From Clostridia bacterium (GTDB lineage Bacteria; Bacillota; Clostridia; TANB77; CAG-508): a stretch of 64,000 nucleotides of DNA. Location of the stretch: NCBI GenBank assembly GCA_045650705.1, contig JAZRRK010000055.1:13842-77841 (forward strand). The letters run 5' to 3'. The notes under the pieces were generated by a model. The model was given only the letters and a program-made list of their open reading frames with translations. It had not been told where the DNA came from and did no database searches. A program made the position numbers and the translations under genes. The stretch's first letter is position 1. Every line of letters begins with the position of its first letter. Below, in pieces: positions 52,011 to 58,912 of the stretch.

Positions 52011-52468
52011 TATCTGTTTAACAAATATACTCCTAAATTCAAATATGAAGCAAATAGTATCCAAAGTATATATGGAATTTGAAGTAGCCCTGCTATTTTA
52101 TTTTTAGAGTAAAATTCCCTTATCATTATTATTACTACAACTGCAAGCAATATAATCCAGAAAAAAGAAAATAATCTCCATTTAAATGTAAAAAAGAAAA
52201 AAGACCATAAAGCATTTATAAATAGTTGTAAATAATAAATTAAATTAATTCTAGGATTAACAAGAGAATTGCTTTCTAATATTCCATAAGATATTCCCAT
52301 TAATGCATACAAAATAGTCCAAACTATAGGAAAAATAAAACCAGGTGGTGATAAAGGTGGTTGATTTAATGAATTATAATCTATGGAGCTAGAAGTAAGA
52401 AGTCCGACAATACCACCAACTATTAAAGGAATTAGAATAGACTTAAAATAAATTTTAAAATTTGACAT
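52010..52468 (-). CDS. tspO: TspO/MBR tryptophan-rich sensory protein
   Basis: 5-TM, PPGFIFPIVWTILYALMG motif. Confidence 0.8.
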   Translation of the reverse strand: MSNFKIYFKSILIPLIVGGIVGLLTSSSIDYNSLNQPPLSPPGFIFPIVWTILYALMGISYGILESNSLVNPRINLIYYLQLFINALWSFFFFTFKWRLFSFFWIILLAVVVIIMIREFYSKNKIAGLLQIPYILWILFASYLNLGVYLLNR

Positions 52469-52596
52469 ATTATACCCCCTTATATAAATATATTCAAACT
52501 TTCTAGCATATATTTGTAAAATTTAAAAATAAATATTATTTAATTCATGGTCCAGGCACAAAAATTTATCTAAAACATATAATTTGGTATAGATAA

Positions 52597-52951
52597 ATGG
52601 AGGTGCTTTTTTTGTTATTTTATTTAACAAGTTTTATAGAATTTTGTAAAACTGCTTTTTTTGTTTTAGGGTACATATCAAATAATAGCTTGTTTCCAGA
52701 ACCATTATCACCAGAAGAAGAGAAAGAATATTTGGAAAGATATATGAATGGTGATGAAGAAGCTAGAAACATACTAATAGAAAGAAACCTAAGATTAGTA
52801 GCACACATATGCAAAAAATATAATATACCAAATCTAGAATTAGATGATTTGATTTCAATAGGAACAATAGGATTGATAAAAGGAATAAACACATTTAATC
52901 TAGATAAGAATGTTAGACTGGCTACATATGCTTCAAGATGCATCGAAAATG
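52597..52951 (+). CDS. sigK: Sigma-K 5' segment (pro-sequence plus region 2; spoIVCB-like), truncated by the intervening element
   Basis: FFVLGYISNNSLFPEPLSPEEEKEYL, NLRLVAHICKKY, LATYASRCIEN. TTG 52612 behind GGAGGTG may be the true start. CATATAAT at 52576-52583 resembles a sigma-E/K -10. Confidence 0.9.
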
Positions 52952-53462
52952 CAACTATCACGTGTTGGAAAATCAAGTGGCGATTAGTAAGCTGTTTGAT
53001 AAATTAAAGGACAAGCTAGATACTGAAATAATAATTCATACTAGCCCTACATGGAAGATACCACGAATAAATGAACATAGTACACTTGGAGAACAAATAA
53101 AATATTATCGTAGACTTGCTAATATAAAACAAACTGATTTATGCCTTAAACTTGGTTGTGATAGAGGTGTTTTAGACCATCTTGAAAATAGAGATATGAA
53201 ACTAATAAATATTAACTTAATTAAAGATATTATAAAAGAATTAAATATTGAAGATAAAATTATTATAAATGATGATTATATTTCTTTTATTTTTGATAAT
53301 CCAAGTAAAGCAATAATTGATTTTAGAAAGAAAAATAATCTTAAAAGAAGTGATTTATCCAAAATGATGAAAATTGATATATCAGTAATTAAAAGATGGG
53401 AAAATGGAAAGTGTCAAATGACTAGAGCAAGTTATAATAAATTAAAAAAATGTATGAGTTAG
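52938..53462 (+). CDS. Double-HTH (XRE-like) protein; its only ATG lies in the sigK 5' segment, outside the element
   Basis: Two HTH units (LGEQIKYYRRLANIKQTDLCLKLG; IIDFRKKNNLKRSDLSKMMKIDISVIKRWENG). No internal ATG before the first HTH. Confidence 0.6.
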   Translation: MHRKCNYHVLENQVAISKLFDKLKDKLDTEIIIHTSPTWKIPRINEHSTLGEQIKYYRRLANIKQTDLCLKLGCDRGVLDHLENRDMKLININLIKDIIKELNIEDKIIINDDYISFIFDNPSKAIIDFRKKNNLKRSDLSKMMKIDISVIKRWENGKCQMTRASYNKLKKCMS

Positions 53463-53650
53463 TCGCTCGTACATTTTTCTTTATCTTTTAAATGCCCTAA
53501 TACAGAATTTAATAATTCTCTTTTAGATGCATCATTAATATTTAATTGTTTTATTTTTTCTATCAATAGGGTTGCATGAAAGTCTGCAACTCTATTTTCA
53601 AGTTCTTTTTTATCTTCTTCTAGTTCTGGAAGATTTACAATAACTTTCAT
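53459..53650 (-). CDS. Small acidic hypothetical protein (63 aa), last gene of the minus-strand module
   Basis: GGAGG SD; follows the FtsK-like gene. Confidence 0.5.
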   Translation of the reverse strand: MKVIVNLPELEEDKKELENRVADFHATLLIEKIKQLNINDASKRELLNSVLGHLKDKEKCTSD

Positions 53651-53696
53651 GCTAGCCTCCTTACTTAAAGTTTATTCAAACTATAAAATAATTTGA

Positions 53697-55070
53697 TTAA
53701 TGTTTGTTATTATTTAGGATTTTTTCATAATCATCAATCCAATAACATTGTGCAAGTGTCTTGTTAACATTTGAAATATATAATCCTCTAGCATTTTTAG
53801 GGATTTTTTCAGCTGCATCTTTATTATCTAGTATGATATTGCTTAATATTTCATCAGCTCTAAAACAAATACGATAACCTATATTAGTTCTAATTTGACC
53901 TGAAATTAAATCAGCTGAAGGACGTTGTGTTGAGAGTAATAAATGTATACCTACCATACGACCTAAACGAGCTATTTTTTCAATATTTCGTTCAATTTTT
54001 TCAAGTTGTTCTTTTTCTTCTTTGGATAAATGTTTTTTATCAATTGTTAATACTTCAGCAACTTCATCAAAAGCAAGTATAATATGTTTCATTTTATTAG
54101 TAGCTTTCTTATTATAATTATCAATATTATTAACACCAAATTTAATTAATTCTTGAACCCTTATATCATATTCTTCTATAAGGTTGTCTAATACCATAAG
54201 TAAATCATTTTTAGTGCTAACAATTTTACATTTATCATGCCAAATTTTTTCGTAGTCTATTGCATTTTTAAAATCTGCTATAATTACCTTATGTCCTAAT
54301 GCTAAAGCCTGTGCTAAAACTAATTTTACAGAGGTTGTCTTGCCTGAATTGCTTTCGCCACCATCTAAACCATGAGGAATTGTAGACATATTCCAAATTT
54401 CTTGTTCGCCAAATGCATCTACACCTAAAACTACTTTTAGTTCAACATCATCTTTTTGTAAATAATTATTGTTCCAAATTTTAGGTTTAGGATTACTTAA
54501 ATCTTCTTTTGTTAAGCATAGAAGAATTTTGTTATTTCCTAATTTTTTAATGCCTTTTACTATGTACCCATAAATTTCTATTCTGCTCATATTCTTTTCC
54601 CAATCAGCAATCATTGTTGAATTAGTGAAAAATTTATATATCATTGTATTTTTATCTTTAGGATTAATATAACTTGCTATAAATATGGCTGTTCCTCTAG
54701 CATAATTTACTATTCCTGCATTATATATTTTTTCACATATTTTGTTAGAATTAATAGGTATTGCTAGACCTATTACATATACAATATAAAATAGGATTGC
54801 TAGAATAACTGCTATTATGTTTGATGGTATATTTGTGCCTAACATATTATTAATTAGCATTAATATTTTGTTATCAGGTATTTCAACACTTAAATTATGA
54901 ATTATTAATAATACTATTCCTAATACTATTGTTCCAATGATTAAAGCTATTAACTTTAATTTATTATGATAAAATTGATTTACTGCTATCTCCAAAAATT
55001 GAGGTATAGTAATTTTTCCCTTTTTATATGCTCTATTATTTTTTATTGCCTTATTTAAATTATCTTTCAT
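53697..55070 (-). CDS. FtsK/SpoIIIE-family (TcpA/Orf21-like) membrane DNA translocase / coupling protein
   Basis: N-terminal TM helices, Walker A GESNSGKT, Walker B ILAFDEV, LLSTQRP. Confidence 0.85.
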   Translation of the reverse strand: MKDNLNKAIKNNRAYKKGKITIPQFLEIAVNQFYHNKLKLIALIIGTIVLGIVLLIIHNLSVEIPDNKILMLINNMLGTNIPSNIIAVILAILFYIVYVIGLAIPINSNKICEKIYNAGIVNYARGTAIFIASYINPKDKNTMIYKFFTNSTMIADWEKNMSRIEIYGYIVKGIKKLGNNKILLCLTKEDLSNPKPKIWNNNYLQKDDVELKVVLGVDAFGEQEIWNMSTIPHGLDGGESNSGKTTSVKLVLAQALALGHKVIIADFKNAIDYEKIWHDKCKIVSTKNDLLMVLDNLIEEYDIRVQELIKFGVNNIDNYNKKATNKMKHIILAFDEVAEVLTIDKKHLSKEEKEQLEKIERNIEKIARLGRMVGIHLLLSTQRPSADLISGQIRTNIGYRICFRADEILSNIILDNKDAAEKIPKNARGLYISNVNKTLAQCYWIDDYEKILNNNKH

Positions 55071-55084
55071 GATAATTCCTCCTT

Positions 55085-56128
55085 TTAATTTTTAGTTTCA
55101 ATAAATTCTATATTTTCCATGTCTTGCATGATATCTATATCTTTTGTATGTTTAATTTTAATTATTTTTAATATATTGCTATCTTTATCACGTTGAAATT
55201 CCCAAATATTATGAACTCTTCTTTCAAATGCAGAATAGATACTAGGTTCGTATACTTTTTCATAAGAATAAATTTTTGAGAAATCTAAATTACTGCATAT
55301 AAATATATATTTTGCTGTAATTAGCTTTCCTTGAAATCTTGCAGGGGCTTGAGTAACTGGATGCGACCCAATGTAAATATTTAATTCAGGTATTTCAATT
55401 TGACCAACATATTCATCTATTAATATACAGGAATGGTTTAAACTATCGTAACCATCAAAAAGAGCATTTTTATTTCTATAGTTATACATTCTAAACACTT
55501 TTTTAGCATCTTTCATTAAATTATAAACAAAAGTTGTTTTTCCTACATTTGTAGTTCCTGTAATAAATGTTACTACAACATCTCTGTACTCACTTGAATA
55601 TTTATCTACTAAATACATATAAGCTATATCATCTAGTTGTTTTTTCTTATGCCATAATTTTGGATTTTTTTCTATTATGTCTTTAACAGATAGTCCATGT
55701 TTTAAATCCTCTAAAATTTGTCTTTCGAGTGGATTATTTTCTTGCTGTTCAGTTTCAAGAATTTTGCCTTCCTCATAGAAACTATTATCTTGGACACTCT
55801 CTAATTTTTCTTTATTTTTATCATCAGTCCATTTACCTGATTTCTCACAATATGCTCTGTTCTCTAGTGAACTACCATAGGCTTTTTCAATATGTGCTGT
55901 AGGGAATAAGGTCTTAAGCCTATTGAAATATATTGGACTAGGGCTATATAGGTATAAATGCTTATGTAAAATATTATTTGCTTTAGTTTTTTCTAAATTA
56001 GATAAACAGAAATACTGAACAGAAGTTAATTGTTTTACTTTTTCAAGTATAACTTCATCAGTTAGTCCAAATTTATCTACTGAATTCAATTCTATATTCC
56101 ATTTTCTAGATTGACTATTAGTAGCCAT
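55085..56128 (-). CDS. HUH endonuclease plus SF3 helicase Rep-like protein (rolling-circle initiator / relaxase candidate)
   Basis: Motif I RKWNIELN, motif II HKHLYLY, motif III YCEKSG, Walker A GTTNVGKT, Walker B ILIDEY, motif C ICSN. Confidence 0.8.
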   Translation of the reverse strand: MATNSQSRKWNIELNSVDKFGLTDEVILEKVKQLTSVQYFCLSNLEKTKANNILHKHLYLYSPSPIYFNRLKTLFPTAHIEKAYGSSLENRAYCEKSGKWTDDKNKEKLESVQDNSFYEEGKILETEQQENNPLERQILEDLKHGLSVKDIIEKNPKLWHKKKQLDDIAYMYLVDKYSSEYRDVVVTFITGTTNVGKTTFVYNLMKDAKKVFRMYNYRNKNALFDGYDSLNHSCILIDEYVGQIEIPELNIYIGSHPVTQAPARFQGKLITAKYIFICSNLDFSKIYSYEKVYEPSIYSAFERRVHNIWEFQRDKDSNILKIIKIKHTKDIDIMQDMENIEFIETKN

Positions 56129-57364: not shown

Positions 57365-58012
57365 ATGAAAATAACTAAATACCCTCAATCATGTTTATTG
57401 ATTGAAACAAACAACAAAAAAATATTAGTAGATGCAGGAGGATTGAAATATAAAGAAGAATATTTTGGTATATGGAAAAATGTTGATATTGTTTTATTAA
57501 CTCATAAGCATGGCGACCATGTAAATTATGATGTTTTAAAAAATATTAATGTACCTATTTATTCTACTATGGAAGTACAAAACGCTTACCCTGAACTAAA
57601 AATTAATATAATAAAAGAAAATGATAATATTTCTTTTGATAATATAAATATAGAAGTCGTTAAAGCAGTTCATGGATACAATCCAAATTTAAAAGATGGT
57701 AAAGAAGTTTTTGAAAACGTTGGTTATATCATAGATGATAATCATACAAGACTTTATATAACAAGCGATACTATTTGTTTTAATAATGATTATAAAGCTG
57801 ATATTGTTGCACTGCCTATTACAGCTCATGGACTTACAATGTCTAGTTATGAAGCTTCATTATTTGCAATAGATTTAGGTGCTAAATTGGTATTGCCTAT
57901 TCATATGGACAATGATGCATACCCAACTGATTTTGATTATATGAAAAAGAATTTTGATAAATTTAATATAAATTATAAAGTATTAGAAATTGAAGAAAGT
58001 TTGGAGGTGTAA
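57365..58012 (+). CDS. MBL-fold metallo-hydrolase
   Basis: HKHGDH motif, about 215 aa, AAGGAG SD. Confidence 0.75.
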   Translation: MKITKYPQSCLLIETNNKKILVDAGGLKYKEEYFGIWKNVDIVLLTHKHGDHVNYDVLKNINVPIYSTMEVQNAYPELKINIIKENDNISFDNINIEVVKAVHGYNPNLKDGKEVFENVGYIIDDNHTRLYITSDTICFNNDYKADIVALPITAHGLTMSSYEASLFAIDLGAKLVLPIHMDNDAYPTDFDYMKKNFDKFNINYKVLEIEESLEV

Positions 58013-58014
58013 AA

Positions 58015-58398
58015 ATGAAGGAGAATAAACTTACAATATTTATAAATAAACCTGTAGAAAAAGTATTTGAATATTCTTTAGAATCAGATAATGTTCCAAA
58101 ATGGATTACTTCAATTAAAGAAGAAATACCATCAGAGAGACCTGTAAAAGTTGGTACAAAATTAAAAAATATAGGTGTTAATAGTGATAATTGGAATTTT
58201 TATGAAGTAATTGCTTTTGAACAAGGTAAAACATTTACATTAAAGAGACTAAAAGGAGATTATTTTGTAAAATATACTTGTACTGAAAAAGATGGTGGAA
58301 CAGAATTTGAATATTTTGAATGGGCTGAAAATGAACTAGATGAATTAATGGAAATGTCAGCATTAGAATTATTAAAAGAATTAATTGAAAACGAATAG
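58015..58398 (+). CDS. SRPBCC (START/AHSA1/polyketide cyclase-like) small-ligand-binding fold protein
   Basis: 127 aa; typical N-terminus ([22 protein letters not shown]); GGAGGTG SD. Confidence 0.55.
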
Positions 58399-58412: not shown

Positions 58413-58658
58413 ATGAGAGAATTAAAAATAAATGGTATATATAAACATTTTAAAGGAAACTATTATTTAGTTGTTGATATTGCTGGTCATTCAGAAACAA
58501 AAGAAAAATATGTAGTATATAGAAGATTATATGGAGATGGTAGCTTATGGATTAGACCAATGGATATGTTTTTAAGCGAAGTAGACCATGATAAGTACCC
58601 AAATGTAGAGCAAAAATACAGATTTGAATTACAAGATATAGAAAGTGTTGCAAAATAA
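58413..58658 (+). CDS. DUF1653-like protein, paralog 1
   Basis: [46 protein letters not shown]. Confidence 0.65.
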
Positions 58659-58678: not shown

Positions 58679-58912
58679 ATGAGAGAATTAAAAATTAAAG
58701 GTGTATATAAACACTATAAGGGAGATTTATATATTGTAGAAGATATAATTTATCATAGTGAAACTTGCGAAAAGATGGTAGCATATAGAGCTTTATATGG
58801 TGATAATAAATTATGGTGTAGACCTTATGAAATGTTTTTAGATGAAGTAAATAAAAATGGTCAAAAATATAGATTTGAATTACAAGAAATTAAGAGTGTA
58901 CAGGAGGTTTAA
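58679..58912 (+). CDS. DUF1653-like protein, paralog 2
   Basis: GVYKHYKGDLYIVEDIIYHSETCEKMVAYRALYGDNKLWCRPYEMF. Confidence 0.65.
   Translation: MRELKIKGVYKHYKGDLYIVEDIIYHSETCEKMVAYRALYGDNKLWCRPYEMFLDEVNKNGQKYRFELQEIKSVQEV

Follow-up and report, generated by a model that had tools for sequence, protein, structure and literature searches.

The DNA analysed here, referred to as the window, is a stretch of 64,000 nucleotides (nt) from a Clostridia bacterium (assembly GCA_045650705.1, contig JAZRRK010000055.1, positions 13,842 to 77,841; all coordinates below count from the first letter of the window). Reading both junctions and listing the open reading frames (ORFs) revealed that the sigK gene is split at 52949/61091 by an element of about 8.14 kb. 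Host DNA forms the 5' segment of the gene up to the crossover (52597-52949, plus strand) and the 3' segment (61091-61448, plus strand). The sigK sequence breaks off after ...TGC ATC GAA AAT G (52951) and is picked up at 61093 (...AG ATT CTA ATG CAT), and joining 52597-52951 to 61093-61448 yields an intact SigK of 236 amino acids (aa) (...YASRCIENEILMHLR...). A TTG at 52612, shortly 3' of the motif GGAGGTG, may be the real sigK start. At its right end the element carries an ORF for a large serine recombinase (59390-61093, 567 aa, stop TGA at 61091-61093), and at its left end an ORF for two helix-turn-helix (HTH) domains of the XRE type, here referred to as the tail (52950-53462, 170 codons); both lie on the plus strand. 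An earlier sequence-only reading of the window had proposed that excision fuses the two in frame. From the comparisons described below, we consider it likely that a single gene is divided into the 567-aa recombinase ORF and the double-HTH ORF, with the attachment site of the free element (attP) located inside this gene at a domain boundary.

The element-encoded 5' part of the putative split gene (59390-61090, 567 codons) specifies the domain order of large serine recombinases, in which a resolvase domain (Resolvase, PF00239, residues 13-164, E 1.7e-31) is followed by a recombinase domain (Recombinase, PF07508, residues 198-328) and a zinc ribbon (Zn_ribbon_recom, PF13408, residues 342-407). 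The protein also matches the integrase family phrog_95 (E 1e-97). In the tail, two stretches match PF01381 (HTH_3, E 2.6e-11), and in an AlphaFold model (mean predicted local distance difference test score, pLDDT, 88.8) an N-terminal helix and a linker are followed by two HTH domains of the Cro/C1 type. A Foldseek search with this model returned HipB, SinR, C-proteins, ImmR and P22 c2, each as a single domain (template modelling score relative to the target 0.6-0.8, E ~0.02-0.1); the matches were generic single HTH domains only and included neither a two-domain analogue nor a known directionality factor. Joining 59390-61092 to 52952-53462, as in the junction of an excised circle, resulted in an ORF of 737 aa whose sole stop is the terminal one (...FPTGANCK-CNYHVLENQV...KKCMS). 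In this junction the recombinase stop vanishes, leaving one ORF for a large serine recombinase with two XRE-type HTH domains. These coordinates confirmed that the recombinase stop overlaps the attachment (att) core and that the two frames are identical, as the sequence-only reading had stated. As attP is located inside the ORF, the free and the integrated genome encode different forms of the protein.

The two ends read ...ATC GAA AAT G/CA ACT ATC ACG at attL and ...AAC TGC AAA TG/A GAT TCT at attR, with the core AAATG at 52947-52951 and 61088-61092, respectively. By aligning the ends of related elements, attP was resolved as a near-perfect inverted repeat, TTTCCAACTGGTG-N9-AA-N9-CACGTGTTGGAAA, both arms of which lie in coding sequence. 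The P arm TTTCCAACTGGTG (61067-61079) encodes F-P-T-G of the recombinase C-terminus and is kept in about 30 attR sites, while the P' arm CACGTGTTGGAAA (52959-52971) is conserved in all related attL sites. The P' arm is the reverse complement of TTTCCAACAGGTG and repeats the P arm in inverted orientation; within the tail ORF it codes for H-V-L-E. This layout is that of serine-integrase sites, i.e. an imperfect inverted repeat of ~40-50 bp around a 2-bp crossover. Because variant cores occur (TAATG in attL of locus L002, AAACG in attR of L008) and the arms stand symmetrically at 9 nt on either side, we infer that the crossover dinucleotide is AA (52948-52949 in attL, 61089-61090 in attR). The whole recombinase TGA would therefore be sigK DNA, read there in another frame as AAT GAG. 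The conserved FPTG and H-V/M-L-E may represent the arms of the site, amino acid conservation at these positions then reflecting a constraint at the DNA level. Where the host asparagine codon is AAC (L008/L051, L010, L022, L030), the core contains no TGA and the integrated recombinase extends 7-24 codons into sigK; the C-terminus of the integrated enzyme would therefore be set by the host, with variation being tolerated. At L091 (9990-10060), the 3' half of sigK is directly adjoined by a relative of the tail gene on the opposite strand, and the central dinucleotide is TT. The element is therefore reversed at the same sigK codons, illustrating how the dinucleotide sets orientation.

Related elements were collected as 30 loci retrieved via the recombinase and 55 via an alignment of the HTH protein. 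Nearly all are located at the same sigK site, on dozens of contigs from metagenome-assembled genomes (MAGs) of gut Clostridia, Bacilli and Erysipelotrichaceae. Between elements, the recombinase cores are 92-95% identical and the tails 63-80%. A recombinase identity of 92-94% stands against 47-83% for the flanking N-terminal halves of sigK, so that the elements look as if they had recently been mobile between hosts. Split sigK genes with the element also occur in MAGs titled Tenericutes, Anaeroplasmataceae, Bacilli and Erysipelotrichaceae (L014, L020, L010, L011); either sporulation genes appear to be retained there, or binning or taxonomy is unreliable.

The in-frame relation was then examined in lineages that had both ends on one contig, which were parsed by hand. 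In all four divergent lineages with both ends known, the predicted junction was an in-frame fusion free of stops. The window-type lineage gives ..ANCK/CNYHVLE. The lineage of L053, L055 and L065, whose recombinase is ~50% identical, has arms GTTCTTTTAAGTGATAG and CTATCACCTAAAAGAAC in the layout GTTCTTTTAAGTGATAG-N12-CTATCACCTAAAAGAAC, the core GAATG and the junction ..SDSGE/CNYHLKEL. L079 gives ..GDNCE/CTPHIMD, and L071, which occupies a target other than sigK with the central dinucleotide AC, a host-derived TAA and, 5' of the tail, a host-derived TGA, gives ..GTDSN/CYENITE. L064, a candidate for a further lineage with both ends, was excluded since the central dinucleotides of attL and attR disagree (TA versus AA by spacing); it is possibly aberrant or chimeric. 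Among 42 non-redundant attL junctions in sigK that carry the tail gene, 41 show no stop between the junction codon and the first HTH (GxQIKYYR motif, ~46 codons further on). By our estimate from base composition, about 2-5% of non-coding AT-rich stretches of this length would be free of stops. Comparison thus shows an in-frame relation that exceeds chance and does not appear to be a coincidence of frame, and it supports the view that assembly of a recombinase-HTH gene on excision would be a conserved and selected arrangement.

To search for genes in which the two parts are not separated, a profile of the tail was run against 1.84 billion representative proteins. Three whole-gene proteins were found that carry the full tail in one C-terminal stretch, P0191 (753 aa), P0210 (716 aa) and P0222 (736 aa, partial), all with the order Resolvase-Recombinase-Zn_ribbon-HTH. 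The hypothetical fusion of the window aligned in a single high-scoring segment pair with each of two of these, at 45% identity over 735 columns with P0191 and at 36% over 724 columns with P0210. Its tail is collinear with the tails of the ORFs at L086 and L087. P0210 is encoded on 15 contigs of 5-50 kb with a phage- or plasmid-like look (Rep, FtsK-like ATPase, holin, M23 peptidase). On the 3' side of the P0210 gene, the order matches that of the window, with a small ORF in convergent orientation preceding an FtsK-like gene, and L087 has a similar arrangement in this place. The convergent ORF of the window (53459-53650, minus strand, 63 aa) is 41% identical to a 55-aa ORF at L086 (3337-3504) beside the uninterrupted gene; the correspondingly placed 55-aa ORF of L087-L089 gave no sequence match to it. 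Within the L087 ORF, a palindrome ATGTTGCCACAGTCAGCACATAGC-AA-ATGCAATATGCTGATAGCGGAAACAT, centred on GCAAATGC, is located at the domain boundary. The same core, AGCAAATGC, occurs at the domain boundary of L086, where the repeat is weak and was aligned by hand; the repeat finder gave no clear palindrome at this boundary. Both boundary sites are attP-like, located inside the ORF and with a core matching the sigK target.

A search with a peptide spanning the junction of the window yielded P0267, encoded on a 730-bp ENA metagenome contig (L092) on which a window-type attP (TTTCCAACAGGTGAGAGCCGCAAATGCAACATTCACGTGTTGGAAA) is read through as one ORF, ...FPTGESRK-CNIHVLEIDVSISKLF..., i.e. FPTGESRK-CNIHVLE. 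The gene call for P0267 evidently used genetic code 4, in which TGA is read as Trp. The attP pattern TTTCCAACWGGT-N9-AAAYR-N7-YACNTRWTGGAAA had no match in viral_contigs, and L092 was its only match among all fetched loci. No related loci were obtained from IMG/VR with either P0210 or the HTH alignment as query, and tblastn with the tail gave no match among sequenced phages and one irrelevant HTH match among plasmids. A search with the junction segment of P0210 returned only two separate 155-aa HTH proteins, one of them that of L091, and no pair of split and fused versions of one element. The earlier proposal that excision assembles a single recombinase-HTH ORF is borne out by the four lineages, the uninterrupted genes of 716-753 aa and one attP contig read through.

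We next considered how the tail could be translated in the integrated state. As noted by the sequence-only reading, the sole in-frame ATG 5' of the first HTH lies in sigK DNA (52938-52940, plus strand); GTG 52962, TTG 52965 and GTG 52977 are, in addition, in frame as candidate internal starts (52962-52979, plus strand). Anti-Shine-Dalgarno energies were -1.5 kcal/mol for ATG 52938, 0.1 for GTG 52962, 0.4 for TTG 52965 and -3.3 for GTG 52977. Against medians of -8.1 kcal/mol across 49 long ORFs and -1.0 in the background, all candidate tail starts are at background level and none has a Shine-Dalgarno sequence. No promoter-like site above shuffled expectation was observed at the tail ORF. Directly 3' of its stop is a terminator-like hairpin with a 14-bp stem (53446-53478), shared with the convergent 63-aa ORF and the only terminator-like site in 52400-53800 (mean in shuffles, 0.2). 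The tail stop (TAG, 53460-62) and that of the convergent ORF overlap inside this hairpin, which looks like a shared bidirectional terminator.

The sequence-only reading had offered a sigK-derived start as one way of making the HTH protein. In such a case the protein would be produced from ATG 52938 under the sigK promoter, as a chimera of host start and element body in the mother cell. This ATG is in frame and the only one available, and gene callers use its equivalent in 13 of the 42 junctions, i.e. in those from which the host ATG can be reached. In 25 of the 42, however, access is blocked by an in-frame stop no more than three codons 5' of the junction, TGA if the sigK isoleucine codon is ATT and TAA if the host reads GAT AAT. 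The ATG itself (AG[A TG]C of Arg-Cys codons) appears incidental because it is set by synonymous codon choice in sigK, requiring an arginine codon ending in A followed by TGY, and the reversed element of L091 uses a different incidental host ATG. Together with its background-level Shine-Dalgarno energy, these comparisons largely refute a sigK-started chimera, and we regard it as highly improbable.

A more serious alternative is that the HTH ORF encodes an ordinary, independent regulator of about 166 aa, started at GTG 52962, TTG 52965 or GTG 52977 and expressed via read-through from sigK or a weak internal promoter. The continuity of frame would then follow from common descent and from an att site intolerant of indels, and the fusion on the circle would have no function. 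Several observations favour this explanation and weigh against a single split gene. A canonical start occurs no more than 11 codons from the junction in 31 of the 42 junctions. At the position of GTG 52962, the codon following CAC, most elements have GTG, L008-L011 and L051 have ATG, and ATA, CTG, CTA or CTC occur elsewhere; an HTH protein could therefore be made on its own while the element is integrated. Gene callers mostly start the homologues here, giving products of 161-166 aa (166 aa from the GTG of the window). In L048/L049 the junction codon is TGA in place of TGC, so that a stop would stay in the circle, and the HTH has its own ATG (MFYLLKD). In L047/L058, covered at the tail end and located in a target other than sigK, the HTH ORF is in a different frame relative to the P' arm. 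Six related elements have no tail gene (L003, L007, L016, L017, L019, L025) and their circles would add 13-43 unrelated codons to the recombinase; the tail is therefore dispensable for persistence. The tail is also far less conserved between elements than the recombinase core, and the two halves apparently exchange as modules. In some lineages the tail is probably expressed on its own. Conservation of frame near the core is in part forced by the attachment site itself. The contig L092, for its part, has 1.4x coverage and is a deletion derivative that lacks recombinase codons 1 to ~455, its tail being cut short by a premature stop. Finally, the one-gene reading is founded on sequence comparison throughout.

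An independent regulator is, on the other hand, difficult to reconcile with candidate starts that have no Shine-Dalgarno sequence, with the lack of a promoter above chance at the tail ORF and with a start position that is not conserved across the tail family. In nine junctions (the sublineage with HLKEL at the junction and L068), neither ATG nor GTG nor TTG occurs within the first 31 codons. L053 and L070 lack a canonical start altogether before the HTH, and in both a host in-frame TGA is located one codon 5' of the junction codon. The ORFs of the HLKEL sublineage are intact despite the lack of starts, and their ratio of nonsynonymous to synonymous substitution rates (dN/dS), 0.49 for the linker and 0.10 for the HTH part, indicates selection. 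Such start-less lineages argue against a need for the tail in excision from the integrated state. Intact ORFs without a start and uninterrupted genes are not explicable by a constraint of the att site on the frame, and the fused genes of the relatives are collinear with the window fusion. In addition, a newly transferred circle has no recombinase stop before the end of the tail, making the fusion unavoidable. We therefore consider an independent regulator with a functionless fusion unlikely. The claim that the HTH protein arises only as a post-excision fusion stood in part: it fits the HLKEL sublineage with its start-less L053 and L070, but goes too far for the window, in which GTG 52962 occupies the position of the ATG of L008-L011. 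Relatives in which the frames differ or a stop intervenes, named beforehand as evidence that would speak against the proposal, were found as exceptions only, in L047/L058 and L048/L049, respectively. The tail-gene copies in L047, L058 and L064, as well as the recombinase end of L064, are flanked by GC-rich DNA other than sigK (in L064 at 2020-2100 and 5100-5265), and these flanks suggest secondary or alternative integration sites.

A third explanation would regard the tail ORF as a decaying remnant. A full-length ancestral gene would have been split as the element turned into a skin-like sigK switch passed on by vertical inheritance, and its 3' fragment would have lost relevance. The six elements without a tail would be in line with decay, as would the truncated locus L063, the deletion chimeras P0070, P0088 and P0117 and the loci L012 and L092. 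A remnant, however, would not be expected to stay intact in 41 of 42 junctions or to show dN/dS values of 0.10-0.33 in the HTH domains and 0.30-0.49 in the linker (window-type group, 0.33 and 0.30), and the elements look recently mobile between hosts. Decay of the tail thus appears improbable. Deletion derivatives are recurrent among the relatives (loci L012, L017 and L092; proteins P0070, P0088 and P0117). In P0088 and L012 the two HTH units have merged into a single one, and P0070 is an HTH/XRE chimera in which the N-terminus of the tail is joined to the other XRE gene of the element. P0117 (267 aa, with a Zn-ribbon domain) was considered as a circle junction and rejected, as it is a deletion chimera of an HTH N-terminus and a recombinase C-terminus. 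The element family appears to be shedding parts via recombination between short or homologous repeats.

According to the one-gene reading, the free or circular element would carry an uninterrupted unit that runs from a promoter with a palindrome (~59322-59366) through the 737-codon ORF to the hairpin at 53446-53478. The promoter-like sequence 5' of the recombinase gene, TTGCAT-N17-TGTGATATA with an extended -10 (59322-59366, plus strand), is kept across most related loci and looks sigma-A-like. It is overlapped by the palindrome GTGATA-N12-TATCAC, the sole palindrome of this kind in the window, which might serve as an operator bound by the recombinase or its HTH tail. The half-sites resemble the inner att repeats (GTGATAG...CTATCAC in the L053 lineage, TATCAC on the P' side in the window), with a spacer 2 nt shorter. 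On insertion into sigK at GAA-AAT-GAG, the AA crossover would be the point at which the recombinase-HTH gene is cut. What the integrated element encodes is the 567-aa core enzyme with a stop codon donated by sigK, and the tail segment is stranded at the far end of the element without a promoter or Shine-Dalgarno sequence of its own and with weak or lineage-specific internal starts only.

Since the frame on the circle runs on to the end of the tail without a stop, integration into a new host would be catalysed by the 737-aa form, and given the movement between hosts, the form encoded by the circle would have to be capable of integration. Excision from sigK would be catalysed by the 567-aa form. 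If the circle form integrates and the integrated form excises, the two directions of recombination would use different isoforms. After excision, the DNA-binding tail would again be tethered to the enzyme. It might bind operators in the left module of the element or near attP, and such binding might tune the recombinase, or genes for replication and transfer, in the free state only. The generic HTH make-up and the faster divergence of the tail suggest a modular DNA-binding function tied to the left module. More speculatively, the switch between isoforms could itself be the control of directionality, the 737-aa form, made only from the circle, being competent for or biased towards attP x attB and regulating the element via its tail, and the 567-aa form, made only in the integrated state, being licensed for excision. 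We consider this extension doubtful. If true, the integration state would be read out in the structure of the enzyme, a separate directionality factor would be less needed or replaced, and isoform-based control of directionality would be widespread among the sigK elements of gut Firmicutes. Strict directionality is what makes large serine integrases valuable. To our knowledge, a separate directionality factor is the only known way to reverse them; none was identified in the element.

Elements of the skin type that intervene in sigK and encode a large serine recombinase are known from B. subtilis (skin/SpoIVCA), C. difficile (skinCd/CD1231, with the directionality factor CD1234) and C. perfringens (phage PhiS63) (PMC5025042, PMC3442830). 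The present element shares with them an interrupted sigK coding sequence, restoration of the ORF by recombination between short cores and a recombinase at one end of the element. In contrast, it is only 8.1 kb in size and, with Rep and an FtsK-like ATPase, resembles a plasmid or an integrative and mobilizable element (IME) and not a prophage. The recombinase gene has the same direction as sigK, whereas the directions are opposite in PhiS63, skinBs and skinCt (PMC3442830). Moreover, the att site is inside the recombinase gene, so that integration truncates the enzyme; a recombinase gene spanning attP is not mentioned for skin-type elements in PMC3442830 or PMC5595907.

A closer parallel in principle is the integration-dependent immunity of mycobacteriophage BPs and its relatives, in which attP is located in the repressor gene and integration by a tyrosine integrase removes a short C-terminal degradation tag (PMC4557955, PMC3694055). 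In both systems attP lies in a coding sequence, the proteins of the viral and the prophage genome differ at the C-terminus, and the state of integration is written in the protein. Here, however, the split gene encodes a serine recombinase, and the lost part is a folded tandem-HTH module of 170 residues. The present system is like BPs in principle but no member of the BPs type. Expression from the recombinase locus can also be altered by excision or circularisation elsewhere. Lyras and Rood reportedly described in 2000 a promoter for TnpX that is formed at the joint of the Tn4451 circle. For ICEKp1, promoter switching has been described (PMC13023037). In these two systems it is transcription that changes, whereas here the coding sequence itself changes. 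Engineered fusions of integrases with recombination directionality factors (RDFs) demonstrated that a C-terminal partner on a large serine integrase is tolerated and alters the behaviour of the enzyme (PMC5737554; also used in PMC12286644). In contrast to the tail, a generic HTH module of the Cro/C1 type, the partner in these synthetic fusions is a known directionality factor. A natural equivalent of a recombinase gene split by its own attP was not found in the literature searched; as coverage was incomplete, novelty is unproven.

From the geometry of the genome alone, the integrating and the excising enzyme would differ by a DNA-binding module of 170 residues. If true, this would be a new natural coupling of the properties of a recombinase to its state of integration. 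For the annotation of sigK elements, a 'recombinase' and an 'HTH regulator' at opposite ends would be one gene, and the stop codon of the recombinase would belong to the host. The family is common in MAGs of gut Clostridia and Bacilli, and may affect the control of sporulation and horizontal transfer there.

Adjacent to the convergent 63-aa ORF, a domain search identified an FtsK/SpoIIIE-like ATPase (53697-55070, minus strand). It adjoins a Rep protein (55085-56128, minus strand) with a Viral_Rep (PF02407) endonuclease-like N-terminus and a superfamily-3 'RNA_helicase' domain, a pairing that corresponds to the Rep architecture of circular Rep-encoding single-stranded DNA (CRESS-DNA) viruses; this protein had no PHROG match. 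Between Rep and the recombinase, two tandem paralogous small ORFs (58413-58658 and 58679-58912, plus strand) encode 81 and 77 aa that both begin with MRELKI(N/K)G(I/V)YKH and match phrog_21101 and phrog_4767, to which PHROG assigns no function. Two cargo-like genes are located 5' of these tandem ORFs, encoding a protein with a metallo-beta-lactamase fold (57365-58012) and an SRPBCC/polyketide-cyclase-like protein (58015-58398).

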